Shown: in pieces, positions 3,672 to 32,885 of the stretch
Numbering within the stretch: position 1 is the first letter of the stretch
How the letters are laid out: each line of letters begins with the position of its first letter
From: Podarcis vaucheri
Taxonomy: Eukaryota
Length of the DNA stretch: 64,000 nucleotides
Strand: one strand, 5' to 3'
Assembly: GCA_965113315.1 (NCBI GenBank)
Contig: OZ220367.1
Notes under the pieces: model-generated
What the model was told of the DNA's origin: nothing
The model's input: the letters and a program-made list of their open reading frames with translations, nothing else
The model's database searches: none
Translations under genes and position numbers: made by a program

Positions 3672-4974
3672 AATGGATTGTTCTTATGGATCTCAGTTCT
3701 AATTTTACTAACACATAATAGGTTTTGAAGTGTTTATTATATCCCACCTTTTAAAAAAAAATGAAAAAACCGATTTGTAAAATCTTGGGGCTACCAGTCA
3801 TGCACTCGGATCCGCACTCACTTAGCTTCAACAATGCTTCAGTATAATTCCTCAAAGTTTTTTTTAAGAAACCTTAGTCTCTATTACTGTAGAAGGTTTG
3901 TACTCCAATATGCCTTTGTATGTTGCGGCTCCTGACACTGTATCCCTTCAAGTGCAGATTTATTTATGTAGCAAAATTTATATACTGTTTGATTGTAGGA
4001 AAACCTCTAAGTGGTTTACAAAAGATATCCTGTATCTTTACAGACTAGCCATTTAAGAAGTGTTTGATTGCATGTTCCCAAATTTTTCATCCTTTATTTA
4101 TTGCAGCTAATGGATCACTGCAGACCACCTTTTTTTCTTACACTTTGGCTGCAGTCCTTTGCACATTTACCTGATATTTAGACCCATTGAGCTCAATGGA
4201 CTTACTTCTGAGTAAACATGTATAGGGTTGCTGTATTAACTCTAAGCTTACATATGATTAATAGGGTCATTGTTAAGTAATTAAAAGACTGGGAGCATAC
4301 TACCATGTCACAAATTTATATAAGATTTGCCTCTACTAATGTATATGTATAGATGCTTCTGGCAAATTAAGGTGGCGGCTGGGTGGGATCTCAATAGCTT
4401 GGTGCTTTGCAGTGCTCCCAGCTGCCCTAGAATAAACAAAGGTTTATTTAAGTTTTAAAAGAGGAGAAGGGGGCAGGAGGCCCAGAACCCACCACAAAAG
4501 AGCCATAGCTTAGCCCCCCCCCCCGGTCAATCCCCACCCTCACCCCCAAACAATGCCTGACATTTATTGGATACCATTCAAAAGGCTTATCTGTGCTACT
4601 TTTCTCTGGAACTCTACTTGGTTTCTTTTGTTACAAGCAGCAGTTATTACTCATGCATATCAGTCTCTCTCTTAGTCATTCCGCTGTAACTGCAAGGTCA
4701 GTTTTAATGAAGTAGCTTCATATTGCTAAATATTTTGGAACAGGGTTGCAGTCTAGATTTCTCTCATGGGGTAAAAAAAGTGACGTTGGTTGAAAAAGCA
4801 AAGGAAGATAACATCATAAAGGTGAACTTGTGCAATTCTTGTGTCCTCTGGATTATGGACTGATGAGTGAGGTTGTTCATATCTCTCTGCCTAAACAGAA
4901 ACCCTGAATGTGCAGTGTTGTGTGTTAAGCAGAGTCCCACTTCCCTGTCTGACCTGCCCAAATTCATGTCCATC

Positions 4975-5103
4975 TGGCTGTTAAACCAGATGGTTGGTGG
5001 TTCAAGTCCACCTAGGGGTGGCTGTGGACAGGATTCCTGCATTGCAGGGGGTTAGACTAGATGACCCCCTGGGTTCCTTCCTTCTTGTAATTCTATGATT
5101 CTA
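4975..5103 (+). mobile_element. SINE fragment with tRNA-like B box and CR1-type tail (Squam2-like)
   Basis: ggttcaagtcc B box then ttcctgcattgcagggggttagactagatgacc...attctatgattcta, shared with the CR1 3' end at ~3600-3670. Confidence 0.65.
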
Positions 5104-5545
5104 GACTGTCATGGGCCTTGGAGGGTCACTGCCTTTTGCCACGATTCTTCACATTGCTTGTGCTGAGGAAGTTTGTCCTCAGAAGTAGGCAGAAGTATCA
5201 CTATATTTTTAGGATTTGGGGAACTTGGGCATTGGGAATAGCCTCCACTGTTTTATTTTAAACCTTTACTTCCCTTGAGGACACCTAAAAACATATCAGT
5301 TATAGGTCTTGTAAACTATTACTAGTTAAAATAACTCAATGAGATCAAGTATTAAGTCTCTTGAGAAGATTGTGCTTTGCAGGAATTCATGCTATACTAT
5401 AATTGTATCTGAATTGGCATTTTCAGTTTTATTTTTAAAAATTATTCAATTTGCAAAAATTAAAATAGCACCAGATATGCAAGGTCCAGAAATGTCTCAG
5501 CAAGTGACATGATCCAGATTTTCTTTCTCTGTGTGGCTCTTACAG

Positions 5546-5855
5546 GTTTGTTTGTGGGTGTGTTTTTTTTAAAAATGGGACTGTTGAGAAAGTAGGAACT
5601 GAAGAGGTGAAGCAGCAGCATGTGAAATTCAGCAAAAGGATTAGATTTGGCGCTACACATTAGTTTCTGTACAGGCTCTTAGACATAGCCTCTTGAGACG
5701 AGAGCAGACTGTCATCCTGTATAGCTGAATACAGTTGGCTTGTTTGGGCTGCTTGGCGTGTGTGTGTTTGCTCTTGCATTCCATATCCAATGTAGCTTTT
5801 GCTTCAAGTGGATGTGATTTGGTTCAGCAGACTGTGGATACTTAGACTGCAGAAG
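5546..5855 (+). other. PLCE1: Candidate alternative, apparently non-coding PLCE1 exon homologous to the mammalian PLC-epsilon-1b N-terminal exon
   Basis: Acceptor ttttctttctctgtgtggctcttacag|G and donor AAG|gtatgg; frame from 5595 reads GTEEVKQQHVKFSKRIRF, resembling the recalled human isoform-1b GMEEVRQLHVRFCKGIKIW; in-frame stops at 5661, 5694, 5793. Confidence 0.6.
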
Positions 5856-7795
5856 GTATGGTTCATTCATTGTAACCAAAGGTTTTGTTTCATAGTACGA
5901 ATTACAGAACTGCCTTTAAAGAGCAGAAGAGTGTGTTTTCTAAGACCTTTTGCAGTAATAAGCAGGATGCTGTTTTCATTGAAACATGCTTTGTGTTTAT
6001 ATCAAGATTTATTAATGTGTGCAAAAGTAATAAACAGCTCTTTCTTAAAGAAGGTTCTTCCTTTCTAACTAATTGCTAAACTCTGTACACAGAAATGCTT
6101 TTATTGTTTCCTAGTTCATTGCTGGCCTTAAAGCCAGTTTGTGTTTGAGTTTATATTATCTTTATGTCGTTTGTTGCCAATTTTAAATATGTTTGCTGCA
6201 AGTATCTGGTTACTGGTTCTCATTCTGGCTGTATAATCATAGTACAATTGCAGAATTAAACTTCTTGCATTAGAAACCTTTTTAATGAGGCATGGTTTTA
6301 AAATGCTAGCAATTTGAACAACCAATCTATTCATTAAAATTTAATATTAAGTAAGCTGCATGTAATAATAGACTTGTGTTTACTTGGAGGATAAAATGGA
6401 TTTCTGCTGTGAGTCTAACATGATAGCTGAAAATCTGTGTATGATTTTGAGGTTTCATACTGCAGTTGTATTGAAACATTTTTACAGAATCAGATTTAGA
6501 TTACTTTTGAAAGATTTTGTTCATGTTTCCTCATCAAACATTTGTGTATTCCATATAAAATGTCTAGGTACTTTCTGTTATATATATGATAGAAATCCTA
6601 ATAAAGTTATTTGCTTACTTTATGTTGCATACTGTTGTAGTTAAAATAGCTCAGTTTGATTTTTTTTAATGGTTATGTCAGTGTACTTTACTGGAACTTA
6701 CAATATGTACTGTATTTTAGGAATTTAAGCAATCAAGACTACATGACTAACATAGTAACTTACCCATTCTGATAAATTGAACTGTTTACTATCTTAAACA
6801 TTATGGCAGTTCTGAAAAATTACAGTAACTGTGACAAGTTGTCCTATTCTAAGTAGCGAAAGCAAAGTTCTTACACTGTGACTTAAACTTGAATGACAGC
6901 TTTACTGAATCTGCTCACTTCAGAGTTGATAGAAAACTAAGCCTCAATGCATTAATGACTTAATTGGATGGTTTGATAATATACTCTCTCTCTATCCCTG
7001 TTCTCTACCATATAAGCATGAAGGCAAGTGTATCCCTAAAGGAGCATTTTGCTATATTTCTACATTTATTTTTATCACTTTATATAATTAAAAATATTTT
7101 TTTACTATTACATTGCAAAGGATTTCCAGACTCTAACTTAACTTGTATTGTTGAAGATATGCATGGAAGAGACTGTTTACGTTGCTATGGTTTCACAGAC
7201 TGATATTTATGATATGAATTAAGAACAGGTAAACTTATTGAAAAATATCACCCTAAACTGGTAATAATATAATATTTCTGTACTTTTTCATCGGTGACTA
7301 TTTTATGTTGCCTCGAAAAGAGGGGGAGGGGGAATCTTAAAGATGGTGATAAGGAGCTAATACAATAGTATGGGAGTTTCTAAACATCTGCCTTTATTGT
7401 GTGTGTTTTTGTGTGTGTTCTGTAAACTATTTGGCTGTTACAGCACTAGACTGAATGAGACCCGTTCTTCACACAGAGGCTTGAAGGTCCCTAATTGGTG
7501 GGATTCTGCCAGTTTTCCTCACTCCCCAGTACTTGGGACTGTATGAATCTTTATATGTTAAGAAGGAGGATCAGAGATGAACTGTACTGTTTTAGTATTG
7601 GGCATAAGCTGTTGCTCTAGTAAGAGAAGAAAAGGCAGAGACGATTAATGTCGGTACCCAGCACTAATACTGAATTTCTCCTCCTCCTCTGTAAATATTG
7701 ATTTCATACACTCACCCTAACAGTCCTCTTCAACTATCAAATCTGATATATTGTTGAGGTGATTAATATGTACTGCTTCAGACTGCAGGTTCAAG

Positions 7796-7796
<1 letters not shown>

Positions 7797-7826
<30 letters not shown>

Positions 7827-7836
7827 CTGATTGATT
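7797..7836. repeat. (GATT)n microsatellite
   Basis: Direct reading. Confidence 0.95.
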
Positions 7837-10110
7837 AAATAAATACTCTTTCATGCAAACACATCTGCACATAGAGAACTAGTATGTAAGGAGAAAAGCT
7901 TCTCTCTGACATGCTCGTTTTCTGTATGCAATTGTCTCTTTGTAAAAGATCCAGTCATGTGAGCTCCCAGTCTGAAATTGTACAGCTGAGACGCAGATTT
8001 ACCACCCCCGTACAAATAACAAAACATGCTTGAAATATTTAGTTTTCTTTTGTGCTTTTGTCCATTTGAAATGAGGAAAGTAAAAAAAAAATTGCCTCTG
8101 ATTGGAAGTCCCAGATTAGTAAATATTGGTGATCTGTCGGCTTAAACACTGGGAGTTGTCTCTCTGGGGACTATAGGTGGTGGTGTCCATGTGGTGTCCT
8201 ACGTGATGGGAAATAGTAAGAAGTGCCAACATTAGGGGAACAGTTAAAGCACTCAACAGCAATTTGGGGTTTATTTTGTGGTTCATTGTGCTCCTCGGGC
8301 TCCAGCACTCAGAAAAACAATTTGCCTTGTCTACTTGGGTTGCACAGATAATATTTGGCAGCACTATATAAATATTTGGCAGTAATATATAAAGCAGGGT
8401 GCCAAACTCAAATGTGTTGGAGGACTGAATTGTGGGCCCAGTGGAGGCACAAGGGGCAACGCCCAGAATCTCTAACTGAATCACCAGTTTTGCTTCCCTA
8501 CATCATTCGAATTCAGTTTGCAGCCTGTCTGCATCTTGCTTGCCAACATTCTTTTAGCATGCGGGTGGGGGGACACTGGTGGCCCCCTCCAGAGGTTGCT
8601 GGACTATGATTTCCACCATCCTAGACTGTTGGCCACGCTGGCTGGGGCCGGATGTAAATTCAACAACATACGGAGTGCTACTGGATCCCTGTCATTGTTT
8701 TAGCAGCAGCGCCATCCCACTTTCCTGCTCCCTCCTTCTGCCCACCATCTTAGACATTCTTTGCCTTGCCCTTAAAAATCTACTCTCATGCTAAAGCAGA
8801 GGTCACTAACATGGTTATCAGCTACAGCTCTCATCAGCCCCAGCCAGTATGGCCTGTGATCAGGATGGATGAATCTTGTACTCCACAATATGCAGAAGAC
8901 ACCACCTTAGCTAACACGGCAATAAAGCAACTGGTATTGCCCATCCTGCTAATTTAAATAGAAGAAGCTGATGCTAAGGCATTCAGTGGCCATCCTTGAT
9001 AGATCATCTCCTTTTCCCTACTAAGTATGTTGGCTTTATAGTCCTGCAAATGTTTTAGGGACAATTTATGTGGGTGTAGTGGTAGATTGAGGTGAGCTGT
9101 AGTTATGGGTCTGTGCAAGCCACCAGACTTCGTTTGCTCATTCAGATGTATAATATAAGGCAGTCAACCAGTTTTTATCACGTAATTAATTCTAAAGAAA
9201 GCTTAAACCCTTCTCTTGTATCTCATGGCAGTTCAACTCAATCACTTCATATTTTTGAGGAGTTATCATAGTAGTGGCATATACCACTGACCATAACATT
9301 ACAAATTAAAGGAGCATAACTGCACATCAATTTTTGCAAGCAAGTTGTAATATACAAAGAATTTCAGTTGAAACTAACACATATATAACAAAATAAATCT
9401 AATGGATGCCTGAACTACAGTTCCTGTCTCTGTGTTAGTCTCCAGAGGATAAGAGAAGTTAATATAAAGTATTTTTGTTTTTCTGGTCCTAAGCCAAATG
9501 TTTTCAATTCAGATGTCTCGTGTGACATTGAACTCCAGCAGGAAAAGACAGAAAAGCTTTATCCTAGACCTTTAATATATTACTGGCTTAAGTATACTTT
9601 TACACAGTGACCGTGTTCTCACATCATCCTAAACCATGGTTTAGTGCTACGTGGATGAGCTGAACAAGCCAGGAGCAGGACTTTGACTGAGTTTTGTTTG
9701 GCTTTTAAAGAAACCTTGTTTTCCATCAATAGATTTCATAACAAGCCAATTTAAAATGGTGGGTTATGCACCTGGCTTCTTAAACCAATATCCCTGGTTC
9801 AAACATAATGCTAAGGCAGCAGGACTCTTTAAAAAGTGAAACTAAAATCTCCCAGTTGCACTGGAAGAGGAGTGGGGAATGTGTGAACCCAATACTTTGT
9901 TCGGTCAAATCCAGACGTGCCCATGTAGTACTGAACTATAGTTTACTGTTACTTGTGAAAATGATCTTCCTTTACTGACTCTTACTTGGCCTGGTTTGAG
10001 TTATAGATTTATCCACTAGATGGGCAAGATTAGTTGGCTTCTTCTTCCCATTCTTCCCCTCCCCCGTGCAAAATAAATTCAATCCGGGCTGATTAAACTT
10101 CACATTTTAA

Positions 10111-10200
10111 GGCTGCAATCTTAGATCTACTTACCTGGGAGTAAGTACCATTGAGCTCAATGGAATTTCCTCCTGAGTAGATGTATATAGGATTGTGCCC
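10111..10200. repeat. ~90-bp palindromic interspersed repeat (other copies ~4147-4232, 21211-21302, 21360-21448, 38528-38613, 46525-46602, 50533-50625)
   Basis: gctgcaatcc...acttacctgggagtaag..ccattgagctcaatgg...ctgagtag..atgtataggattg consensus. Confidence 0.75.
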
Positions 10201-10236
10201 ATATGTAGCTTTCCTATCTAGTACTTTAAAGGTACA

Positions 10237-10602
10237 GTGGGACGCGGGTGGCGCTGTGGGTTAAAGCCTCAGCGCCTAGGGCTTGCCGATCGAAAGGTCG
10301 GCAGTTCGAATCCCCGCGGCGGGGTGCGCTCCCGCTGCTCGGTCCCAGCGCCTGCCAACCTAGCAGTTCGAAAGCATCCCTGGGTGCAAGTAGATAAATA
10401 GGTACCGCTTACCAGCGGGAAGGTAAACGGCGTTCCGTGTGCTGCGCTGGCTCGCCAGATGCAGCTTGTCACGCTGGCCACGTGACCCGGAAGTGTCTCC
10501 GGACAGCGCTGGCCCCCGGCCTCTTGAGTGAGATGGGCGCACAAACCCCAGAGTCTGTCAAGACTGGCCCGTTCGGGCAGGGGTACCTTTACCTTTACCT
10601 TT
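10237..10602 (+). mobile_element. Sauria SINE (Squam1), full length, young
   Basis: tRNA-like head gggacgcgggtggcgctgtggg with B-box gttcgaatcc, (accttt)n tail, 15-bp TSD tactttaaaggtaca (10222-10236, 10603-10617), CpG-rich. Confidence 0.92.
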
Positions 10603-12073
10603 TACTTTAAAGGTACATGCAACTGTTTCACAAATCCTTTTTACCACCTCCCAGTGTTGTAAAATTAAAGATTATGGAAACTATCTAGCATATAAGGAAA
10701 ACATACTGCAATATATATTTGTGCTAGAATTCTTTTCACAGCTTTCGGGGTAAGACAATGACTTCATTTTTCAAGTCATTTTTGTACATTTTCAAAGTCT
10801 GCATGTGAGCCATAGAACGCTTTGAGGAGAGAGGACAGCTTTGCTTGGATTTACTGCTCATTGGACAAAAAGTATGTCTTGAAGTTCTGACACACTTCGT
10901 AGGGAGAGAATATTCTTGTTTGTGTGAGATGAGAGTTTCCAGAACATACCTGTGTGTCATTCAGAAACAAGACTTGCTGTTTTCAAGTGTTATGACGAAT
11001 ACAGGGTGCTCCCAGGACAATGGATTTTATTATCTCACGTTTTTGCTTATTACACATGTAGAAACTCAACCTTTGCTCCATAAAAATTATTCCAAAATCC
11101 ATTTTTGGGCAATACCTTTGTGAGCCTAACTAAAATATCACAAAATAGTGTGCATGCTTTTGAGTTCTGCAGAACTCTTTGTCAGGCTAGATGGTAAGCG
11201 AAGGTTGGGAAGGGGGAAATTGCCTGTGAGTCTACATCTGATCACACACAGTCTCAAAATGTAAAGTGAGAAGATGTAGCAGGCATTTAAATAGGCTGTG
11301 TTAAGTGCTATGTAGGTTTTGGGTTCCATCAAATGGCTGCTGGGAAGAAGGAACATGACATGATTCTCTGAGAACAAAAAAACCCAGCTGTTATTCAGTC
11401 TGTCTATGTCTTCAGGTGAAACACACAGGTTCCTTCATAGGAGGAAAACAGTAATAAAAAGGAACCAGGCAGGTTTCATATTATTGCATATAATATAATA
11501 TAATATATAATATAATATAATATAATTATGGTTCCTATCTGCATATTGGCACAGTATGAGAAAAAAATCTGCTTTCCATTGCAGTGTTTATGCTGTTAGT
11601 TTTTAAGGTATTATAATGCCAAACTACTTTTGACAACTCAGGAAGCGTTTTAATCTTTACACCTGAAAAAGGGTTTCAGTACGGTAATTAAATTTTCAGG
11701 ACCATTCTGTTTCCAACCACCATAGTTCAGTCAGAACACTGAAACCTCCATTGTATAATTGTTACATAAAGGTTTTGTTCTGAGTTGTATATATATGTGT
11801 GTGTGATTTGCAACACCTTCTTGAGTTATGGCCTGTTTATATAGAGTTACAGGCCAGCTATATCTCCAGTCTTGTTCTTCCACAAGTTATTTATGATTGT
11901 TTACCTTTTACAACTGAGATAGTTTACAGATCCAAGAATGGCTTGTCCATTGTCTTGAGTGTGTCATCTTTGAAACCTATCACTGCAGAACATTTGACAG
12001 TAAATAATTACTGTGATACTGCTGAAATTGTATGGATAAAAATTAGTTTCAAACCACCCCAATTTCTGAACTG

Positions 12074-13378
12074 TGTGAGGTTCCAGGGGTTCCAGATGCT
12101 CATCCAGGGTCTGTGTTTTGGGAATGAGGCACAGCGGAGACTGTGGTTTCTTTACGATGTATGGTTTATTTACACATATATACAACCCGATTCTATGATG
12201 GAGGCGTTCATAGCATTAACACCCCAAGAGGGTCTAGTTTCTCCCATCACCGCAGCCTTAGATTCAACCAGAAACCAACCATTCAGCTTGCTGTCTATAC
12301 CAGCCTGCAACCTTTTTCCAGTCTAGGTCACATCAAAGCCAACTATAAACACTAAACTCTGGCTTTGTCCTCTAAGAGCTGAAAGAGGAGCCCCATCCAT
12401 TTGCTGCCTTGCACAGAACCCCTTTTCCTTAGCTTTCTTAGTAGGCCAGCACATTTCTTAATGGCTCATCATCTCGGCAATTATCTCATCAGGAAACTAG
12501 CCTGGCTTATATTCTTTTTAAAATAGTTTTTATTGAGTTTTACAATTTTATATTCAACACAGCAACATCATCTCAAATAAAAAGCTCCCCCCCCCCCGAC
12601 TTCCCTCAACTTCCTCTTCTGGTTTTTTACATATTAACTTCTCCTGCATATTTTATTATACCTTAAAATTGCATTCTTTAAATTGAATATTGTTATGTTC
12701 TTATCGTTTTAACACCATATTTGTTTTCAATTTACGTCTTATACTCTGTTATTTTCCAATTACTATATCTTAATCTCTATGTTTATTTTGTTAATTGTGT
12801 GTTTACACAAACCCTGCTAATGAGTCCACTTCTTTATAATGTTTCTGTAGGTACAACATAAACGGTTCCCAGTCTTTTTAAAAGTCTCTATTGTCCTTGT
12901 CTCTAAGTCTTTCAGTTAACTTCACCATTTCTGCATATTCCATCCATTTTTATTGCCATTTTTCTTTAGTTGGTATCTCGTCATCCTTCCATTTTTGGGC
13001 TAGCAATATCCTAGCCGCTGTTGTAGCATACATAAAAAGTTTCCTCTCCTGTTTTGGCAGATCTTGACCTGTAATGCCTAGCAAAAAGGCTTCTGGTCTT
13101 TTAACAAAGGTTGTCTTAAACATTCATTTCATTTCATTATAAATCATTTCCCAATGATTTTTAATTATTTTACAATTCCGCCCCATATGAAAAAATGTGC
13201 CTTCTTTTTCTTTACACTTCCAACACTTACAGCAGCCAGCCTGGCTTATATTCTAACACTTGCTAAATCCATAGGTTCAGTGTCTGGCACCCTGCTTAAT
13301 ACTCCAAACCTTAATTAAATTCTAACACTTACTGGACCCAGGAATTTAGGGGAATCTGGCACCCACAAACCTATAACA
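12074..13378 (-). mobile_element. Possible solo LTR interrupted by the 12516-13237 L1
   Basis: Minus-strand TGTTATAG...CCTCACA termini, AATAAA on minus at 12165-12170, repeated tctaacactt...tctggcaccc blocks; no TSD found. Confidence 0.35.
12516..13237 (-). mobile_element. L1 3' fragment (second subfamily)
   Basis: 17-bp TSD agcctggcttatattct (12499-12515, 13238-13254), TTCT/AA site; minus strand encodes KCWKCKEKEGTFFH...WEMIYNEMK*MFKTTFVKRPEAFLLGI. Confidence 0.9.
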
Positions 13379-15278
13379 ATATTTTCATTTGCAATACCTT
13401 ATAAGAAAGGTTTTTTATTTTGTTTTGTTTAAAGATGAAATAAAGTTCCTTAAGAATAATGACATTCAGGTTGACTTAAATAGAGCCTAACAAACTACAT
13501 GTTGCATGTGAATGCATGTAGTTAAATCCATTGTCCCTCTTTTATTCCAGGAAAACCTTTAATGGGGCCGAGCAATTTGAAGATAAGCAGCAATAGTGAT
13601 AATGGGGACTTGATGCTATTCCTTTTCCAAATCCGCTCCAACCTACTTTCATCCTGCATGGGGTTCAAAACATATGGGAGAGGAAGGAATTTGATGAAAT
13701 GTCTTGAAGCAAGGAGAGGATGATTATTATTTTTTGCTGTTGTTTTGTTAGATAATCCCATCTGAAAGTGTGTTTTTGTGGTGAAGGTGGGTTTCATTTT
13801 GTTTAAACATGTCTGCATGAAATGTGCAGCTAGATCTCTGGAGAATATATCCTTATTCTATATCTTTTGCTCCCTAGCCAGATACTGTATGGAAAGATTT
13901 TGTATTTTTCTCTCTAATGAAACTAGCCCCCTTGCCCATCGTTTGCAATTCCTTCCAGAATTCTAGCATTAACTCTCATCTGGTGACTCTTATCTTTATT
14001 CTTGGCATTTATGTAGCACTTTAGATTCTTGGCTCATAGCTGACACTGTCAACCACTATTCTGTCCCAGTTCCTTATAGTTTTTCTTACAGTAACGGAGA
14101 GTGATGTCTGCATGTGTGCTGAAGTTGGACTGGAAACATGCCAGGCAACAGTTTATTGAAATATATATATAATCTCTCCTCTGAAATTCACAGGGCTATA
14201 TGGTTAAACATTGTCAAGTAAAATATACCGGTACTTTTCTTTCTTTACTTACACTTGCCAATTTCTTTGAACATCAGGTTCCAGAAGAGCATATGTTTCA
14301 TTTACCTGTCTCTAACCTACATCTCTGCATATAATTGAGCAGAGTTCTTGTACACTGCAGAAAACCAGACACTATTTTGAAAACAGTTGGTGAAATGCGC
14401 ATTTTTTGGAGACAGTTAAGTGCCCCAATGTCTCCTTCCATGCACTAGAGATTAACATTATTATTCTTTATATCATCTTTGCAGCAAGCCACTGTCGCCT
14501 CTCTCTACAAACAAAAGGTTTCTTTGTTTTAGCAGTTAAGAAAAACTTGAATGCAGCGTAAGCAACTGATATCAACTTCATTAAAAGGTTTTGGAAAGCA
14601 ACTACCGCGGTTAGAATTTATTTTTGCTAGCCAAATACTTTCAGAGAAAAGAAGACTTCTTATGCAAGTAACAGAGGTGTACTAGGGATGACTGACTGAA
14701 TGTAAATACAGCAAAAAGGATGGTGAGATGAAGACTGCTGCATAGTTAAATGCTGGGGCATTTTGCATACTTTCACCACTGTTTGCCATTGTGCAGCTTA
14801 GTTACTAATAATGGGAAAGATACCATCCCCCCCATGCATTTCAGATTTTTTAAAAACGTACTTGTCAGCTTTACTGCTGCTGCTTTCTGAGCATAATCTG
14901 GAGTACTGGTATTTTTCTTTGTTTTTTACTCGTAGGAACCTTGGTGCCTTTTCCTGACACGTATTAAGATCTTCCTCTGCCTTCTATACCCCTGAAAGTG
15001 AGGTGGAATGTGACTGGATTTAGTGCTCTCCTCTTTTTTTTGGTAGTGGCACACCAGCTTTGGAATGCCCTTCCCAGGATGGCTTTCCTGGTCCTGAATC
15101 TGTTGTCTTTTCAACCCCAGCTGAACTACACACTTTTATTTCTCTGGGTCTTTTGTTTTATTGAGGTGTTTAGTTTGGTTCTGATTTTATTTCCATGGTT
15201 TTACCCTTTAAAATGATGATTTTATGATTTGTTCTATTTTCTTTTAAAACCATATGCCACATTGAGCATTTAGATTGG

Positions 15279-15493
15279 TTGGCATCTGTCTGTCTTGGGA
15301 GACAATGGAGTGCACCTTTGGGGGTGAAGTCAAACTGTTGGAAGCTTGCAGCGCCAGCTGTGGCTGTGGAGACCGATATGGGAGAGACATTTTTTGTTGC
15401 AGCTGGGGCAGATGAAGGCGTCCAGTCATGCTGTTCCAGATACACCATGGCATTTCTTCTCTCTGTGCTCCTCCCAACAGTCATTCCTCCTCA
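15279..15493 (-). mobile_element. RTE-clade LINE 3' end
   Basis: Minus strand FICPSCNKKCLSHIGLHSHSWRC and 3' end attgtctcccaagacagacagatgccaa. Confidence 0.75.
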
Positions 15494-18013
15494 TTTGAAT
15501 GGGGCTGGGACAAGAGCAAGAGCTAGATCAGAAGGGAGGAATTGAATACAGTCAATGGGCTGGATCTTTCCCTCTATCCACAGGTCATTGTGGGGTCACT
15601 ATGTTGTCATATGTGACCCTGTTTTCTTTTGCCCACATGGTTTCAAACTATAGTGGGAAAGGCTCAGCATTTTTCAGGCACCACCAACAAGAATGTCATA
15701 CTTGCAAAGCCAAGACCCTTTGCAAGTGCTGCTGTGGTCATCAATGCTTGCAAAGGCATGGGTTTGGAAGCACCAACAGTCACAGCACAGGGCTTGTCGC
15801 AAGTCACAGAGATTTGCAAGAGCCACCTATCAGCTGACTGGCAGGCCCTGCAAACACTGTAGGAGCTGCGTCACACCTGATGTCACAATGCTTGCAGGGA
15901 TGGAGGACCAATTGCTATGGTCTGCCCTTAAAGGCTGATGAATCCAGAAGGTTCCCTGAGGTCTCTAGGGACTTTTTCTACAGGTTTAGCTGGCCATTTT
16001 GTGGAAGCTTTAGTCACAGTCAGGGATAGGCTTAGTTTGTTGGTGCAATCCTCCTGAAACATCTTCGACCCAATTGTAAAGTCAGCTGCCTGATATTCTG
16101 GAAAGCTGATGACAACTGGGCTACAGTGCAGGGAGTGGAAAGGGAATAGGGAAAACTTGTAATGAGTGCTACCAGAGACAAATAAAAAACAATTATAGCG
16201 ATTCCGTGGTGATCGTGGCAATGAAAAATAAACTTACTTCCCTGCCAGCAGAACACTTCTGAGCAATGAAGAACTTTTTGTATAAAGGTCTAGAGATAAC
16301 CAAGTGTTAAGAGTCCTCAGAGGATCACTGCGACCAGTTTTCATTGCATTTTGCAGATAAATCACTCATATTGGCTCCAACTTGGATGCCACAGTTTTGG
16401 CAGAGTCAGAGATGGATGTAGGCATGGGTGTAGTTTGTGCAGCCTTACGATGTGGACAAGCTGCTTGGAGCCTTCAGCTTGTTCTCTTAATTCTTTTTCT
16501 TATACCTGTATGGCTGTGCTATATTAAAAAGAAGTAAGTGAAATATAAGTGTTTAGAACTACTTTTCTTAGTATTGTGATTACTTTGTATGTAGTTCTAA
16601 ATTATTTAAAATGTTGGAAGCCACCATGGGAAAATATTGTTGACTTACAGAACAAAATTAAATATTATGAAAATACAGTAGTGTAAATTTTAGAAAGTAG
16701 ATGAGTTCTGATGTGGCTTTTCAGCATTCTGTTATTCAAAGGTTTCCAAATCCATGTGGCAAGTCCACCCCTATATATTATCTTGTAGTAATTAAGAATA
16801 TGATTAATTCTGCTGGTTGACCAGAGACCTTACTTTCTGCTCTGCAGAAAAAAGATAATCTTTAAAGGTCAGGTTGTCTCAGCCTTATGTGTCACAAATG
16901 CTGTCTTCCGGCTTACTAAATAACAGTATCTAGGGATGACTTTGCAAATACATTCTGAATTATTTATTTTATAAAGAATGAAGGGTCTTGTGGCTCCTTG
17001 AAGACTAAAAATATATACGGTATACTGTGGGCTTTAGTGGGCCACAGCCCATTTAAACAAAATACACAAAATGCCATCCTTAGTTGGCAAATCAATTCTG
17101 TCCGTCAGACAATGGAAGGAAGCAGAACTTACAGAAATTGTTGACTTTATACATTAACAAATGCACTAATTATCAGTTCTTGAAATATACCATAAATGAT
17201 ATTTTATATAAACCAGTATGTTGAAATGCACAATTTAAAGGAATAGCACTCCTCTGTTGTGAAACCCTTCTATCGGAAGTGATTTAGGATTTTAGGTTTT
17301 GTTTTTTAAGCCTAGGGTTTTTGAGACACTAGGAGGAGTTCAGGCCTCTAGATTCAACAAGAGCATGATGTGTCATTTTAGAGACTACACCCATAAAAAC
17401 GCCCAGTGCCATTAAGTCCCATGACAGCTAGCTGTGTTAAAAAGGACAAAACAAGTGGCCATTCATTCAAGTCCCCAGAATCCTGTCGCTAAAATCATTT
17501 ACCTGGCTTGTTACTTAGTCAATGTGAAGCCCTTCCTCAGATCCCTGCACAGGTTTCCTGTTCCCTCCTGCACTCTTCCAAACTCCTTGTAGCTACTTTC
17601 AGAAGTCTCCACAGGTCTGTCACATCCTGTTTTTCTGTTCTTACCTCTTGTAACCTCTGCTCCTCCTACTCAACTCTTCTCAGCATCTCACAGGTATGTT
17701 CAGAGAGACTACTTCCTCAAACAACTCGTATCTGTTCTCTCCTGATGTTTGTTTATGCTGGGATTTTTTCCTTCCGCCGCCTCTCCCTTTCTTCAAATCC
17801 TCCTTTAAAACCCACCATTTGCTACAGAGAGACCACTTCAGTCTATTGTTTCTGCAACAGTTCTTTTCATTTAATTTCATTTACAGCTGTGATCAGATAA
17901 CCTTTGATTCAAATAATGTTTTAGTGCAATACATAAGATCAGCATTTTAATAGATTATTTGTTCTTCTACCAAGTGTTAAATTAATTTCTCTCTCTCTTT
18001 TTGTGTTTCACAG

Positions 18014-18296
18014 ATCTTCAAGTCAGCAAAAGGAACAGAAGACTCTTCAGAATATTTTTGCTACCCTTTGAGGGAACCACTAACACCTCAACACCATGCA
18101 GATTGCTGCTGCAGAGGCAACTGCCCTTGCGTAACACCATGTTTTCAAAGAGCTCCTGAATACCGTGCTACTTTACGCAGGACTTCCCTTTCCAATTTTA
18201 TCACTGGAGCTCTACTAGAAGCAACCACGTCACTGGGAGCTAGAAGTGGTACTCTAAATATTTTAGGAGGATCAACTGGAAAGACCATGCTAAAAG
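18014..18296 (+). CDS. PLCE1: PLCE1 coding exon (human exon 3 equivalent), 283 nt, phase 0 to 1
   Basis: tttcacag|ATC acceptor, AAAG|gtaatt donor; translates IFKSAKG...[31 protein letters not shown]...[10 protein letters not shown], matching the PLC-epsilon motif [31 protein letters not shown]. Confidence 0.95.
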
Positions 18297-20112
18297 GTAA
18301 TTAAAGGAGGTTAAATCATCTTTGACAGTGTGGCAATGGGGGGCTCCTACGGCCTCAAATTCTTCTCCAAATTGGAGATGATAAACGTATTGGATTGATT
18401 GTATGCTATCCCCAAGTTCTAAGAATTCAAAATAACATTGTATATATTTAAATAAATCCATGTGTGTTAAATCAGTGGGTCAGATCCGGACTTAGTCATG
18501 CTTAGAGTAATCCCATTGATTTCAATGAGTCTACTCTTAATCAGTAGATCCAAAGTTTTTATTTCGCTTACATGGGAGCCAAAGGCTTTCACATTCCAGA
18601 ATTAAGATTGTATAATTCTCTGCTTACAAAGATTCTACTTTTTTTGTAGTTTTATTTTATTTTAATTGGATACTTGAAGTGGGGTTTTTTTTTGGGGGGG
18701 GGACAAGAAATGCTCAGAACACTAGCATAAGCATTGCATGCAAAGGCTGAGTTGACATAATCAGATAATGTCCATTGATTACCGTTTAGCAGGCAGCTTG
18801 ATTTTGGTTTTTTGCTTTTATGCTCTGCAGTCAGTTCCTTAATGACCCCAAACGTATTGCACATGCATTAAGCTAAAAGTCCATGGGTGAACTATCCTGG
18901 TTTCTATATAGGGCAAGTCATGCCATTGCATTGTTGAGTAGGTTAGAAGTGCATAGATGCACATCTAGAATTTCTTGCTTTTAAAGGATTGTAAAACACT
19001 TTAGATTATAATGTCAACACACCACTATATAAAGATACTGTGTTTCAAATATGCTTACATTAGGTGAAGTAGTGGGGTTAGAGCAGGCCTTAATGAGTTT
19101 GGAGTTAAAGAACAGAGCAGGTCATAACTGTTTTGGATACACTCAAAATATATTTCTGTCTCTGTATCAAATAGCCAAGATTGTTTATGTTCCTGAATGT
19201 TAACGGGTCTTTTGTCAAAAGATTTATAAAAACAGGGATCAAATAAATACATTTTCCATTTTTAGTGCATAGATTGTTAACAGGAAGCTGTGATGGATAA
19301 ATATTGTTATATTTAAGTACCTCTGTTGTAGATGGCTGAATGCATTGATGTGCAAAATGACCTAGATATACTTTGCTCTTCACCCTTTGTTTTGTGGAAG
19401 AAATATGTAGCTTACTAAGGCCTGAACTACACATTACATGGCTAAGCTATGTTTCCATACCTTGACTGCAGCTTTTGCACTGCAAAGGAGGTTGTAAGGA
19501 GGCAATCTGTGGGGAAAACTGCACCTTCTCTCCCCCGCCCTCCTGCCCTGATTTTGCAGGTCTAGAACCCTGGAAGTGCAAGAGAGGCAGGGGAATTGTT
19601 AAGCCATCCTTTCCTGCTGTTTATTGCACACAAATTGCCCCCCTTCTGACAGAATTTTTGCGGCAGATAAGCAGGATCTGGGCTCTGGCAACATTGACTG
19701 TCATCTGTTTCTGAGCTTCTATCTGCCCTTCCGTTTCACTTTCCATACTCAAATCTCCTTTCTTAATATTGGCTCTACAAATCTATGATTCTGCAACCTC
19801 AAACATCTATTATGCACTTGTTAAGCATATTAAAAATTGAAGATATAACTTAATAAATATTTCTTATGTAGTGATATGCTTGTTTGCTGTTTCCTAACCT
19901 TATGATCAAAGGAGGTGATTATCTCTTTCTAGATATGGGGATAATCTGATAAGGAGGGAAATCAGGCTCCAAACTGCTGGATTCAGGGCAGCATATCATT
20001 TATTTCAGTATTTTGGGGTGGCTGGCTTCAATCACCACTTTCTGTTACTTCCATTTTAATGGCTACTAATTCCTCGGTGTTCTCATTTGTTTTCCAGCCA
20101 TGCTCATAACTA

Positions 20113-20372
20113 CCATATTTTTCACTCTATAAGATGCAGCAGACCACAAGACGCACCCAGTTTTTGGAGGAGTAAAACAAGAAAAAAAAATATTCTGAAT
20201 CTCAGAAGCCAGAACAGCAAGAGGGATCGCTGTGCAGTGAAAGCAGCAATCCCTCTTGCTGTTCTGGCTTCTGGGATAGCTGCGCAGCCTGCATTCACTC
20301 CATAAGACGCACACACATTTCCCCTTACTTTTTAGGAGGGAAAAAGTGAGTCTTATAGAGCAAAAAATACGG
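20113..20372. mobile_element. pogo/Tc2-type MITE
   Basis: TIRs ccatatttttcactctataaga / tcttatagagcaaaaaatacgg, TA TSD, long internal palindrome. Confidence 0.85.
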
Positions 20373-20846
20373 TATTTCCGGTGTGCTCCTGAATGGAGGA
20401 ATGGATATATGCACACAAGTATTTGCATGAATGCCCTGTCAGTACTTAATTGGTGTAATAGAATCAACAAATTAGAAAGGGAACACCTACTAGTATGAAT
20501 GGAAAAGACTGAAGTTGCTTCTTATATACAGATTCAAATATGTGCAGATGTGCACTCCTCTGGTCTAATTCAAAAGGGGGGTGGGAATGCATTAACAGTT
20601 AAATAATATCCTATGTGGACAAGCCCTAAAATTAATGATGTATTGTGTGAACCTCTGCAACTCTCCTTTATGAGACTTTATGTTCATCTTCATATGTTTT
20701 TAAAGCTTTTTTTCATAAACCAATAATGGAATACTTGATAAAACAACTCTGCACTCATGGAAAATAGCTGCCTTTTTTCAAACACAGAAATAACATTATG
20801 AATGCTGATTTAAACCAATTTACCAGTATGTATTAGATGTGAAGTA

Positions 20847-21016
20847 CCGTATTTTTCGCTCTATAACACGCACCCGACCATAACACGCACATAGTTTTTA
20901 AAGGAGGAAAATCCGTAGGCATGCCACCCGTAGGCATTCCCTCCATAACACACACAGACATTTCCCCTTACTTTTTAGGAGGAAAAAAGTGAGTGTTATG
21001 GTGCAAAAAAATACGG
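20847..21016. mobile_element. pogo/Tc2-type MITE (short derivative)
   Basis: ccgtatttttcgctctataacac ... gtgttatggtgcaaaaaaatacgg, TA TSD. Confidence 0.85.
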
Positions 21017-22279
21017 TAATTATTTTGACTGAGGGTTGGATAAGCTGTGTCCAGTGGTGAACAGCCAGAGATGGTGGAAGCTGTAATTAAGCAACATATT
21101 GAGGTCTACAGGTTAGGATACCCCCAGCTTAAAAAAATTATATTACCTGTATGTTAAGATCAATTTAGTATTATTGATTACAAGGTGTGCACTTCCAAGA
21201 CATGCTCTGGAGCACAATCCTATACATGTTTACTCAGAAGTATGTCCCATTCAATTCAGTGACTTACTCCCAGGTAAGTGGATACTCTATAAGATGCAGC
21301 CTAAGTCCCATTGATTTCCATGAGATGTCAGTGTTCTTATTTTGTGTGTGTGACTAAGACTCTAATCTGACACACACTTACTTGGGAGTAGCCTCATTCT
21401 AGTAACTGGAGCATGCTTCTGATTGGGCATGTATATACAATCGTACTGTCAAACAGGTTTACAAATACTTTGACTTGGATTTCTTGTAGATTGGATTGCT
21501 ACTCTTAGTAGGAATGTCTACCTGTCCTTAAATGTAAAATACCTCCCGTTGGATTCTTAGCGTTTCAGTTTTTATCTGGGAAGTGAGTAACCTGACCTTT
21601 CCGCATGTCTTCTTTGTGGCTTAAACAAAGCATGCTAGTTGTGCATTTTGACAGTTCGTAGTTTCAGACTGAGCAGCTGTTCCTGACAGCTAGGACAAAC
21701 AAGTGCAGTGTGTGATATTCTTCTGCTTTTGAAAGTATCGGTCCTTCTGGAATTTTAGAAGGAAATCAAAAGAGCAACTCTGTTTACTGGTAAGCTTAAT
21801 GTTCCTATGGCCTATAAGCCGCTGACTTTTAAATTTAAAATGAAAAAAATTAATGTTTCTGAGATGGAGATAAGAAGAGTTTGTTTTTACTGTCATGTAC
21901 AGGTTTCCATTACTAACCATGGAAAGGAACACCTGATATATAGATACAGTATTTGCTTTTTCTTAGTTGTCTATTAGCGAATTCATGGTTTTCTGATCAC
22001 AGCCTTTATGCTTAAACAACAAGCAAACCTGTGACACTTGCACCTAATATAGGTAAACATTGACATGCATGAGCCTAAACATTCCTCTACTGTAAGTGCA
22101 ATGTTGTTTAGCCATTTTCTACGGGTGTCGCTAACTCTCATTGGATGTTTCGTTCAGAAAATCAAGTTAACTGATAAAACATGTTCTCTCTGCTAACAAA
22201 CAAATGTTATTTGGAATAATTTGCAAGTATTTAATCCCAGGGGCTGACTTGTACAGTTGCAGTTGACTTCAAAACTAGG

Positions 22280-22680
22280 GAAGGGTGATTTTGTCAATTT
22301 CAGTTTGTTTTTCTGATCTGAACTTCAGTTCTCCATGTTTCCATATCAATTTGCAAATTCTTTTTCTAAGAAGTTCTCATATAAATCCTTCACCATTTTA
22401 GCATGAATTTCTCCTAATATGCACATTTTTTTCCTGTGCAGTTTTGGCCTAGCATATACATTTGCAAGCAATTTTCTCTAATATAATGCATTTTATGCAC
22501 ACTTTACTTTGTATATGCATTTTGGTACATATTGCTTGGTTGGAGAACAACATTGCAATATTCAGAGAACTGCAAATTTGAAAGCTTCAGTTTCAGTCCA
22601 CATATGGTTTCAGGAAGTGAGAATTGGATATATTTGCCTTAAGTATGAACTGAATCAAATTTCTCTCTATTTCACACTGC
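22280..22680. repeat. Old interspersed repeat; inverted relative at ~48650-49410 (host of the 49022 SINE)
   Basis: Reverse-complement similarity, e.g. gttctccatgtttccatatcaatttgca vs tgcaaactgatgcagaaatatggagaa. Confidence 0.55.
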
Positions 22681-22942
22681 TGCAATTCTTAGTGACACAT
22701 TTCCACTCCCTTAATATCTTGTTTGTTGCGGTGTGGGCACAAATGTTAACATTTGTGAGTAATGCAAGCCTTAAGAATAATGGGTTTAGATATCACTTGA
22801 AGCATTCCTTCTGTTACAATCGCTGCCCAGTTCAGATGTTTCCAGTCCTTCAAGTCATGTTTCAAGGTAGTCTCATGGAGCCACGAATTCTCCCACATGC
22901 CGGATAATTTCTGATTGGCTCTAACCATAATTTGCTCCATTT

Positions 22943-23382
22943 GTCAAAATAAAAAAAAATCCTTCCAGTAGACTGGAAAGAGAAGCTGCTGAATTGCAAC
23001 TCATTACCAAACCTAAAACCATGGAAAGACCTGGTTTGAACAAAGACATTGGATTCTTATCCCATTATACATGACTAAGCCATTTCTCACCTTCTCACCC
23101 CTTGCCTTTTCCTGTAAGACCTATTACAGTCGTTAAGAGTCGTCAACAGGCTCATCTCAGCTATCTGCCATTCTCCCATTCCCACCACCCTTCTGAGTAA
23201 TACCCCTCCCCACCTTCTCACTATATAGAAGGATCTGGCAACTTCTGTTTCAGTGTTTCTGAAGAAGTGTGCATGCACACGAAAGCTCATAACAAGAACT
23301 AACTTAGTTGGTCTTTAAGGTGCTACTGGAAGGATTTTTTTTTATTTTGACTATGGCAGACCAACACGGCTACCTATCTAAC
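22943..23382 (+). mobile_element. Penelope-like element 3' fragment with inverted 5' segment
   Basis: TSD ttgctccattt(g) at 22932-22943 and 23383-23394; 29-bp perfect inverted repeat 22943-22971 vs 23323-23351; GIY-YIG C-terminus-like LEREAAELQLITKPKTMERPGLNKDIGFLSHYT*. Confidence 0.85.
23255..23293 (+). ncRNA. Minimal type-I hammerhead ribozyme motif in Penelope pLTR
   Basis: CTGAAGA(A) 23259-23266, stem II GTGTGC-AT-GCACAC, GAAA 23281-23284, palindromic AGCT then C (UC cleavage site); stem I imperfect in this copy. Confidence 0.7.
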
Positions 23383-25256
23383 TTGCTCCATTTGGACATC
23401 ATTGGTTATGTAAGCTGTGGAAGGGGGAAGGGAAGGGAAGCAGGAGTGAATGGGGGAAGATGTGATCCTGAAGCATGTTCTTGAACATCCAAACCATGCC
23501 CTGGAGGATCAGGATCAAGATGACTGTATTGAGTCGCTAAGCTCAATTACATAGCTGTTGTATTACAGAATTACTGGCACTGTCTTTGGGATTCCAGAAA
23601 GATGGCTAATAATAGCTGTCCGGTTTTAATACTTGAATGGCATGATATAATACTTATATAATATCACAAACAGATGTCATTGTGATAGGAGATCAAAAAA
23701 GTTAGGCTAATTTTAATTGCCCTATGGTTTGTGATAGTTTTTCACATTTGTGTGCACAGGAAACATCATCTTAAATGGGAAGGCTAAATGCTATTTATTA
23801 TTTTCTTTTCGCTAGTGCAATAATAATCTTAGTAGTAACCTACTTCCATTAGAAACATTTGAAAACATTTTATTGTATGTTTACTCTATTTAAACTTTGT
23901 GAATTGCCCTGATAATTTTATATTGGAAGGCAGTATAAAAATCTGATAAATAAAACAAAACTAAAGCATTTTGTTTTCCAGTAAAATAGTCCCCACATCA
24001 TTTGAAATGCCAATATAATATTCCACTTTACTCAGCGGGGCAAGCTCACATTGCGTATTACATTGCTTGTAATGGTGCCCCAACATTTTTCTTAAAGTAA
24101 AATAACATTATGAGAAGAGGATGTACAGGAGAAATGTGGTAGAGGAGTCTGTCCAAACCCACTGTTTCTCTGCTTCAAGTGCCGCATGCAACAAGCATTT
24201 ATTTACCCTTGCAGGATTCAGAATGAGTAGCAGTCAAACTTCTTCAGTATAAAAGTTTTGATTCCATTCAAGGAATAGACCTAAATCAGCAGTGAACAGA
24301 TCTGAGGAAGCAGGAACAAAACAAGGAAGAGCTTGTGGGCCCGCAGCCGTTTAAATGTGACTAAACCATGCCCCTCACCCAGCCGGATTGGCTGGCTTGG
24401 GGGGCATGATGGGGGCCCAGGACTCCAGTGACACAGGGGGCCTGGCCATGCCCCCCCTGTGAGCGTGGGAAGCGATTCCCGCTCACAATCCTTCCCCTCT
24501 GGGAAGAGGAGAGGCTCTGTAAACAGAAGCACTGCTGAATTAATAAGGAAGTTGTAACTCTCCCTTCCCACCCATTCCGTTTTGTGGAACACCTTGCAAA
24601 TGACAGAAAATCACCAACTATTGAAAATTACCTTTGTTTTGGCACTGATGAAGTCAGTAAAATTAACAAAAGGAAGCTACACTGTTTGGTTTCTGTACAA
24701 CAGCCTCTTAAAATACACCATGCACATGCAGAGCAGGTACACGTTTGTGGTTGCTCCAAATTGGTGCCATGACAAAGGAAATAGGTGGTGGAGAAGAGAC
24801 AACATAAGTTAGTAGAAAAAGCTAGTGGAAATAGGTTTTTGCGAAGGGAGACTTCAATTCCTAAATTTGTTTTGTATGTTCAAAGACTTGAAGCAGGTAG
24901 AACACACCTTCGTCTAGTTAGTTCTTTTTGAGTGATATATATTGACTGGCTGTGGGACCAGATCTTGAATTCTAGCCCTGGTGAGCCCCTGGACTGATGT
25001 ACTCTCCACATCCTGTTAGGAGATGAACAAAAATTCAGGATATAAGGATGAAGTTGCTGGAGGGTGGGGTGTTCAGCTTTCTGCATCCTAGAGCCCTATA
25101 GAAACAGAGACACTGTTGAAACAGATACACAATTATTATTAACATTAATTTTTGGTGAGGTAAGTTGTTGCAGCACCTTTCAGAACACCTTATAAATCAG
25201 AGTTGACTAATCTCCAGTTTAGGGGCCATAACCGTAAGCCAATGCCAAGTGACCTT

Positions 25257-25716
25257 TTTTTTTTTTTTGCAAGTAAATTTTTATTCAGAATTTGTAAAAG
25301 AAAAAGAAAGAAAAGAAAAAAGGGCAAACAGATACAAAAATAAACATTTTAACATAAATTATTCATCCTATTTTCATGCTATACAAAAAGTAAGCGTACA
25401 ATCATACAAAAAGATAATATAAACATTAAGCTCTACTTAGCCTTTGACTTCCCTTCACCCTTTTGGTAAGTATCAAATAAATCCCGGATTGCGTAATTAG
25501 TTTATTAAAGTTTATAATTATTAGCTGATAAAGTTTTTCTAATACCGCCAGTTCCTCCTATATATCCATTCCAATATATTTCCAAAATTTACTCCAGTTT
25601 TTTTGAAATTTCTGGTTGTCTTGGTCTCGTATTCTGCCTGTTAATCTATCTAGCTCGGCATATCATTTTGACCTGCCAGTCACTTACGTTAGGTATAGTT
25701 TCTGTTTTCCAATTTT
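25257..25716 (-). mobile_element. L1 3' fragment (third subfamily)
   Basis: 8-bp TSD gtgacctt (25249-25256, 25717-25724), poly-T tail on +; minus strand encodes QNWKTETIPNVSDWQVK...GRIRDQDNQKFQKNWSKF, homologous to the ORF2 C-terminus. Confidence 0.85.
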
Positions 25717-26502
25717 GTGACCTTCAAAGAAAGTGCAGGATTGCCTTTCCAGCTTTGTATTATATCACTAAGTTTTCCCAAGATGTTTTGTTCATATAAT
25801 AGGCACTATATCACATCATTTATAAAATGGGGTCACAAAACAATTTAGCAAAGCAATTTTCAACTCTGCAGGAAGAGCCTGACTTTTACCATTACTTGTT
25901 TTTTTAGAGTGCGATTGCTATTACCACACTGCTGTGCCTCATTATCTCTGACTGTTATATTGAGCAATTTTTAAATAATTGAAAAATGTTAAATCGGGGT
26001 CACAATTCTACAAGCTTCATCTGCACTGCTTTGGTTTAAAATTAGAAGCAATTATGTTGAGAACATCTAGGTTAGAGTTATTATAGCAGGCAACAATGCT
26101 GAAACCAAAGTTCCGGTTAAATATACTAGCTTTCTGAAAATGCTATTACAATTTCTTGAAATGTCCAACTCTCATGATCTGAAACGTGTGACCAATTTAC
26201 TTCACTAAATACAATGGTAACACATGGTGATGTGTTCAGGGTAAAAAGAAAAGAAAAAACAACCATTGATGTACTAGATTTTTTAATGTAAAGATTGTAA
26301 GAAATAGTGAATTCCTCTGTTGATATATAGGGCAGCCTTTGCCAATCTGGCTGGTGTTCATCAATGCCAGCCAGCAACTGGAGGCCACCAGCCAAGTTTA
26401 TGAAGACTAATGTATAGGAATAAGTAAAACCCTGATATGCAGTCATTATTAGCAAACACAGACATGAAGTAGGAGGGGAAATGACAGAACAGAGATGCAG
26501 TA

Positions 26503-26847
26503 CAGTGGTGCCCCGCAAGATGAATGCCTCGCAAGACAAAAAACTCGCTAGACGAAAGGGTTTTGCGGTTTTTGAGCTGCTTCGCAAGACGAATTTCCCT
26601 ATGGGCTTGCTTCGCAAGACGAAAACGTCTTGCAAGTTTGTTTCCTTTTTCTTAACACCGTTAATACAGTTGCGACTTGACTTCAAGGAGCAACTCATAG
26701 AACACGGTGTGGTAGCCTTTTTTGAGGTTTTTGGTGATTTTTGAAGCTTTTCCAAAACTTTTCCGACACCGTGCTTCGCAAGACGAAAAATTCGCTAGAC
26801 GAAAAAACTCGCGGAACGAATTAATTTCGTCTTGCGAGGCACCACTG
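26503..26847. mobile_element. Tc1/mariner MITE with internal cgcaagacgaa repeats
   Basis: TIRs cagtggtgccccgcaaga / tcttgcgaggcaccactg, TA TSD, CpG-rich (young). Confidence 0.88.
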
Positions 26848-27857
26848 TATTGAGAACCTAGCTTACAATAAAAAAGACAAGAAAAATGAAAAAAAAGATC
26901 TTGGCTCGCACTCCCTTGTGTGTTTTTAAAAAAATTCCCAGGCTTTCATACAGAGGGAAACATATAAATTACATACAAATTCTCCAGCCACAAAAATGAC
27001 AAGAGAGCTGGACTAAAGAATGAGGCCAGCCAAAAAAGGGTTTTTTTTAATCCCCCATTGTGCCTTTTTTTTGGGGGGGGGTAACTAGCAATTATAAGCC
27101 AGAGACACATTCATCCTATGGGATTTCTCAGATAACATGATAATGTGTAAGTTATGTGGGTACTTTAAAAAGGCAAGGACATTAAACCATTGCTTTCTGA
27201 CTGAGGGTTAGGCAAGCATGGACTAATTGCAACTTGCTGGCCGACTGATTCAGAACAGTTCAAGCGACAACTTATCTGAGGTACATTTTCTTTGTTTTTA
27301 GATGGCATGATTAGACCTAAGAGTTAGTTATGAGAGCAAATATCCCTCCCTCCCTACAGTCCTCACTTGAGAGAAGTTATTTTATAGTGTATCAGACTGG
27401 AACAACCTGTTTGTCCCCAGTATGCCTATGCAGACTTGACTAACATTAAAAACAAGCAAAATCCTGGCTTTCTTAATACAAAACATCAGGCTGTTCTTGG
27501 AGAGATTACTTTCTTATGCATTTCATTCAGAATTAGTCTTTTTTAATCTTCGCACAGCCTGCAAAGCAGAAGTAATTTTTTTTAAAAAAATTGCAGTAGC
27601 ATCTTGAAGAACATAACTTTAAAGCATGAAAACGAAAGGTGGTGTACCCTCAGTTCTGCTGGCATGCCAGGACTTCCATGTCCTCTCCTCTGGCAACCGT
27701 GGAACTGATTTGGAGGGCATGTTGTGGGTTGGAGGAGATGAGAGTCTATAGCATGCACAGAAGTCCATTGTACCAGCAGAGCTATAGCACAGCCTGCAAA
27801 GCAGAAGTAATTTTTTTTAAAAAAAATTGCAGTAGCATCTTGAAGAACATAACTTTT

Positions 27858-31863: not shown

Positions 31864-31903
<40 letters not shown>
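31864..31903. repeat. (GCTT)n microsatellite
   Basis: Direct reading. Confidence 0.95.
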
Positions 31904-31905
<2 letters not shown>

Positions 31906-32747: not shown

Positions 32748-32885
32748 CAGGCATAGGCAAACTCCGGCTCTCCAGATGTTTTGGGACCACAATTCCCATC
32801 ATCCCTGACCACTGGTCCTGTTAGCTAGGGATGATGGGAGTTGTAGTCCCAAAACATGTGGAGGGCCAGAGTTTGCCTATGCCTG
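32748..32885. mobile_element. hAT MITE, palindromic
   Basis: TIR caggcataggcaaactc / gagtttgcctatgcctg; perfect 8-bp TSD atatatga. Confidence 0.92.

Follow-up and report, generated by a model that had tools for sequence, protein, structure and literature searches.

The window, i.e. the whole analysed stretch of 64,000 nucleotides (G000:C19:65968001-66032000), carries PLCE1, the exons of which are closest to lacertid proteins (91-93%, against 78-86% in seven other lizards). The exon coding for the 1a N-terminus lies upstream of the window, with 11.5 kb from its end to the first window position; exon 3 begins at 18014, and the studied segment, 5546-5855, is found 58% along the 29.5-kb intron separating them. 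This location supports the initial annotation, the corresponding human position being deduced from the protein junction. The segment has a single match in the genome. Exon 3 also matches the genome only once, so that a retrocopy of PLCE1 is unlikely. The positions of the features are collected in Table 1.

Table 1. Features of the PLCE1 locus in window numbering (negative positions lie upstream of the window)
Feature	Position	Strand	Remarks
PLCE1 1a coding exon	-12404 to -11451		long, 318 codons; upstream of the window
Acceptor-like site	5523-5546	+	rank 16 of 1897 AG sites; read through by contigs 5410-5651 and 5479-5689
Four upstream AUGs	within 5575-5817	+	5575 (6 codons); start-stop pairs at 5620, 5790 and 5812
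Conserved core	5592-5715	+	mammalian 1b residues 13-54; non-triplet indels near 5643, 5661 and 5684
Proximal donor site GAG/GTGAAG	5604-5612	+	exon would end at 5606; rank 88 of 1673 GT sites
3' part of spliced exon	5716-5855	+	colinear with mammalian residues 55-94, similarity not significant
Distal donor AAG/GTATGG	5853-5861	+	rank 34 of 1673 GT sites; joined to exon 3 in a close relative
PLCE1 exon 3	18014-18296	+	two short ORFs out of frame (18096, 18139); the AUG at 18287 is the first one in frame

Several observations concern the surroundings of the segment. A repeat present in many copies is situated at about 4956-5080, approximately 450 nt before the conserved element; its head weakly resembles a tRNA, and it is probably a SINE. 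No repeats were seen across 5581-6820. The lizard 1a frame opens with MTDSRK (window -12404). Squamate 1a N-termini comprise about 300-330 residues versus about 400 in turtles, birds, crocodilians and mammals, and, judging by these proteins, squamates seem to have lost approximately the first 85 residues. The first half of exon 3 (18014-18160) is far more divergent from mammals than the second half. Other short N-termini, which join exon 4, exist in Anolis, Pogona and bird models (P0184, P0198, P0338); two of them, P0184 and P0198, were searched for in the intron 18297-33220 and gave no convincing match. The entry P0210 bears no relation to PLCE1.

All the sequence signals listed in the initial annotation are present. 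AG precedes 5546 and GT follows 5855; the frame contains stops at 5661, 5694 and 5793 and would be joined to exon 3 (18014) in phase 0. Splice sites were ranked with a crude matrix made from PLCE1's own sites (11 donors and 10 acceptors, picked automatically and some of them possibly misplaced). By this matrix the 29.5-kb intron contains five equally strong pseudo-exons, the studied segment included, and for this reason splice signals by themselves prove nothing. No TATA box was found in 4800-5606, and 5000-5606 holds a single CpG. The RNA structure of 5590-5720 gave a z of 0.49, and two sub-threshold Rfam matches were not accepted. The open frame 5508-5660 matched one unrelated repeat protein.

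The human 1b N-terminus given in the initial annotation agrees with RefSeq NP_001159451.1 (P0123). When compared by tBLASTn with the 64-kb window, the human isoform 2 N-terminus has its best match at 5595-5681 (14 of 29 residues identical, E 0.003), and the Fukomys 1b N-terminus finds the same best match with an E of 1.9e-4. An HMM of six placental 1b N-termini, with significance values that refer to 84 kb, matches best at 5592-5720 (18.4 bits, E 1.2e-4), the next match reaching 5.8 bits (E 1.0). A back-translated DNA profile aligns 5592-5816 with a score of 63.5, against a mean of 17.4 and a maximum of 28.5 in 332 control tiles. By these alignments, 5592-5715 is the lizard counterpart of the core of the mammalian PLCE1 1b exon.

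The core, about 125 nt long, is alignable through three frame-breaking indels. Residues 14-29 are in frame without gaps (33.7), residues 30-34 align at offset -1 (9.1 versus -5.0 in frame), residues 35-42 return to offset 0, residues 43-54 align at offset -2 (12.3 versus -19.8 in frame), and no block beyond residue 54 scores above 2.8. Since the homology is carried through three frame-breaking indels, the constraint looks as if exerted at the DNA level. The frame containing the stops at 5694 and 5793 is out of register with the mammalian 1b frame. Homology had been claimed for the whole of 5546-5855; it is above chance at 5592-5715 but not over the entire interval, and the DNA leaves the mammalian frame after residue 29. 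At 5546-5591, corresponding to 1b residues 1-14, no homology was detected (286 of 335 control tiles score as well), and 1b residues 43-94 alone score 19.6, which 18 of 335 control tiles equal or exceed. The distance of the distal donor fits mammalian 1b, yet the sequence similarity there is not significant. A published 1B primer aligned with the upstream sequence no better than expected by chance (53 of 336 controls). In the core block 30 of 41 columns are invariant in mammals, versus 16 of 40 downstream (Fisher p 0.0035, with species that are not independent). The amino-acid spectrum of 1b residues 18-94 looks neutral (mean BLOSUM -0.52 versus -0.70, P 0.25), and the same test applied to the known coding 1a N-terminus in another species set gives P 0.65, so that it does not separate the two.

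The exon model of the initial annotation omitted the proximal donor at 5606 and the off-frame conservation after residue 29. The conserved core in fact consists of this donor and about 110 nt 3' of it. A total of 345 PLCE1 proteins were retrieved from the best 120 of 548 matches with no more than 15 members per cluster, and counts made on them depend on annotation. A short 1b N-terminus ending at 'MEE' and followed by exon 3 occurs in 8 of these models (the RefSeq models being human X11 (XP_047281259), macaque X6, horse X7/X8, donkey X4, dog X7 and rabbit X12/X13) and a long one in 9; MEE is present in 17 of 17 mammalian 1b-type models. These short proteins suggest an internal mammalian donor at the E/V point, and this exit aligns to the lizard GAG/GTGAAG at 5606. 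The Met codon of 'MEE' corresponds to ACT in the lizard (5598-5600; site 5597-5600, plus strand).

Transcription was assessed in 8 of 23 listed runs, all from a closely related lizard (best share 0.81 of sampled words), comprising five contig sets and three raw-read runs; the RNA status of X4 and X5 is given by the splice junction itself and not by run records. In two of the five contig sets, X4 and X5, which belong to two studies, the 5855 donor is joined to exon 3 at 18014. After 5855 the contigs (depth 10.9 and 2.5, respectively) run on into the opening 29 nt of exon 3, with one mismatch, and this 29-mer is unique in 84 kb. The initial annotation had named a lack of alignment to 1b and of reads using the 5855 donor as evidence against the exon; an alignment and contigs spliced at 5855 were both obtained. 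One contig crosses 5855 unspliced (X2, depth 2.3). In X1 and X2 exon 3 is placed inside depth-40 contigs whose upstream part falls outside the window, which is consistent with a dominant 1a form. In the raw runs X14 and X15 the depth is 0 over 5581-6200 and hardly higher over exon 3, and in X12 no reads were placed. The relative differs from the window by an A run at 5570 which is longer by 3 nt (X3) and by a 1-nt deletion at 5737 in X5 (depth 2.5; possible error).

The 5' boundary proposed at 5546 fared worse. Two contigs, X1 (5410-5651) and X3 (5479-5689), cross both 5546 and 5606, and at these low depths neither is spliced at either site; no homology reaches 5546 either, as described above. 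The depth of the two contigs (2.2 and 2.6) is comparable to that of other intronic contigs (3.9 and 5.4), and because of this resemblance they may represent unspliced 1a pre-mRNA. No junction from the exon 2 side or from elsewhere upstream into the segment was seen in these low-depth contigs, and the bin depth at 5581-6200 is fully explained by the two contigs, so no spliced contig is hidden there. The initial annotation had offered a poison cassette as one option, in which inclusion between exons 2 and 3 through the 5546 acceptor would send 1a transcripts to nonsense-mediated decay. The high rank of the acceptor speaks for it, and in silico inclusion to either donor introduces a stop as codon 327, the ninth codon of the included exon. 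On the other hand, neither crossing contig is spliced at 5546, there is no loose contig end before it, and the interval 5546-5591 lacks homology; the absence of spliced contigs is in turn a weak argument, as depth is low and such RNA would be depleted by decay. The 5546 boundary, and with it this option, lacks support at these depths, and the poison cassette is regarded as improbable.

Coverage by the spliced contigs starts at 5704 and 5723. The transcript start could thus be close behind the conserved core, or contig coverage simply ended there. In X4 (window 5820-5855) a second path seems to join at 5824, with a depth of 5.5 upstream and 10.9 downstream; either an allele was dropped here or the weak AG at 5826-5827 acts as an acceptor. 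If the latter, the exon would be internal and reached through another acceptor, for example as a 28-nt exon 5828-5855 joined to a putative further exon upstream. The X4 junction contig indeed starts at 5824 with double the depth of the upstream contig, and 5824-5827 reads TCAG; however, only 9 of the 20 positions before the AG are pyrimidines, an allele dropped at 5823 accounts for the pattern equally well, and X5 forms one unbranched contig from 5704. This arrangement is very improbable.

With respect to coding, the earlier statement that the segment has no such capacity is borne out, as no AUG in it reaches exon 3 in frame. The accompanying claim of no usable in-frame ATG needs one qualification: an in-frame ATG exists at 5790, with a TAG immediately after it. 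Behind this TAG there are 20 open codons up to the donor (window 5790-5855), and no difference at the stop is listed in the X4 and X5 contigs of the relative. An alternative N-terminus read from an AUG within the exon, the mark of 1b, is accordingly not provided by the lizard segment. A short coding exon might be imagined in which translation starts at a non-AUG codon among the 20 open ones next to the donor (5796-5855), given that the frame is open into exon 3 and contains CTG at 5832 and 5847 and GTG at 5808 and 5814; however, this part has no significant conservation, 20 open codons are frequent by chance and no such protein is found among the 145 sauropsid ones retrieved, so that such a start is scarcely to be expected. 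Mammalian 1b models, by comparison, have their own Met and join exon 3 directly.

A downstream start is available in exon 3. The AUG at 18287 followed by exon 4 gives first residues identical to those of the Podarcis lilfordi model CAI5774743.1, in which all six Pfam domains are present (RasGEF at 40-228). Among the 345 proteins, 11 have their first residue encoded by the end of exon 3 or immediately behind it, and five of these are squamate (Podarcis lilfordi, Anolis and three from Pogona). The number of upstream AUGs preceding 18287 is four if the transcript starts near 5704 and nine if it starts at 5410.

Taking these results together, it is fairly probable that the segment is a lizard 1b exon counterpart, spliced from 5855 to exon 3, and likely a non-coding internal first exon giving rise to a truncated PLC-epsilon from AUG 18287. 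The homology of 5592-5715, the 5855-18014 junction in the close relative and the loss of the frame are established. Transcription would begin in or just upstream of the segment, from an internal promoter, skipping the 318-codon 1a exon; ribosomes would then have to get past four to nine upstream AUGs and initiate at 18287, and the predicted product would keep the RasGEF, EF-hand, X, Y, C2 and RA domains. Such an internal start would drop the variable N-terminal 400 residues, while the leader may damp output. The internal first exon is favoured by the junction in two of five sets, read-through at 5546 in two of two contigs, the direct joining of mammalian 1b models with their own Met to exon 3, the off-frame similarity, the concentration of invariant mammalian columns in the core block, the squamate short models and the confinement of 1b-type proteins to placentals among those retrieved. 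Against it, the read-through contigs are at intronic depth and the RNA comes from a relative and not from the organism of the window. The putative promoter has neither a TATA box nor more than one CpG in the intervals given above, and predicted translation from 18287 is opposed by the two short ORFs which precede it in exon 3, each with A at -3.

Selection probably acts on DNA or RNA around the proximal donor, the 94-residue placental peptide being possibly a frame laid over that element. What has been kept since the mammal-reptile split is likely not the human peptide but an internal start of the gene. This reading is opposed by the long 1b frames, which are uninterrupted in members of several placental orders, namely primates, cattle, a rodent, a mole-rat and an elephant shrew, and would also fit peptide selection. 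Two long-1b models are labelled 'LOW QUALITY'; they contain no X residues, and the label could not be linked to the 1b region and was given no weight.

The direction of change is a separate matter. A non-coding ancestor is somewhat favoured by conservation at the DNA level, by annotation counts (1b-type proteins in 17 of 193 placental, 0 of 145 sauropsid, 0 of 5 marsupial and 0 of 2 other proteins retrieved) and by the fact that mammals use the proximal donor. The open long frames and the gap-free in-frame residues 14-29 lean towards a coding one, in which case the 1b exon of the amniote ancestor coded, the lizard line lost this capacity, and the remaining transcription and splicing are a relic or serve a leader role. 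Loss of coding would likewise leave off-frame similarity behind. Nevertheless, three indels and several stops within 125 nt argue against a recent loss, neutral DNA is normally not alignable between mammals and reptiles, the donor at 5855 is still in use in the close relative, and 1b-type proteins are absent from the retrieved sauropsid and marsupial ones; a decayed coding exon is thus considered unlikely. Because there is one sauropsid sequence only, the change cannot be polarised; a pattern scan of metagenomes for the 1b region of other amniotes yielded 271 matches, of which none was confirmed. It may be proposed, tentatively and with more doubt than confidence, that the exon has been a non-coding internal first exon for an N-terminally truncated enzyme since the amniote ancestor and that placentals gained coding stepwise, first an AUG ahead of the proximal donor giving 'MEE' and then a 94-residue read-on as far as the distal donor. 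The 1b peptide would then be a frame formed de novo over a regulatory element, and of the mammalian 1b forms the short one, which uses the proximal donor, may be conserved best.

If the conserved feature is an internal start, studies of 1b should compare the loss of the 1a N-terminus and promoter control; they should also cover the short proximal-donor form, possibly missed by 1b cDNA work. PLCE1 is described in the literature as a kidney-disease and cancer-risk gene, so that regulatory variants might be sought in such a deeply conserved stretch of 125 nt. If the above is true, the gain or loss of coding could also be dated on a single exon. The 5' end of the 1b exon may already be described by Sorli et al. 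2005.

Human isoform 2, or PLC-epsilon-1b, is attributed to Sorli et al. 2005 in PMC13022664, PMC5381159 and PMC12627389, the first of which gives a tissue pattern restricted to placenta, lung and spleen. Mammalian 1a and 1b, their tissue patterns and their unresolved functional differences are treated in PMC13022664, PMC5381159, PMC12627389, PMC6413391 and PMC5017709. According to reviews (PMC12627389, PMC5381159, PMC13022664) it is still unknown what the two splice forms and the N-terminus do; PMC4687464 and PMC13015409 added nothing further on 1b. A literature search covering mostly titles and abstracts, with subscription papers and supplements outside it, returned no report of a reptile 1b exon or of the proximal donor, and public browser alignments may already display the element as conserved. 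A spliced non-coding lizard counterpart of a known alternative exon is real, and it concerns one gene and a known class of event. In contrast to human 1b (NP_001159451.1, 1994 aa), the lizard exon has no in-frame start codon, its frame is broken by three indels and stops, and residues 1-12 and 55-94 find no significant match in it. What the two have in common is the homologous core of residues 13-54 and a comparable distance from the proximal to the distal donor (249 nt in the lizard versus 231 nt, or 77 codons, in human). The squamate isoforms CAI5774743.1 (Podarcis lilfordi), Anolis X5 and Pogona X4/X6 start at the equivalent of AUG 18287, the predicted product of the lizard transcript, and we infer their link to the lizard 1b-like exon. 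The human 1b exon replaces the 1a N-terminus and joins exon 3 in phase 0, and the lizard exon makes the same phase-0 join.
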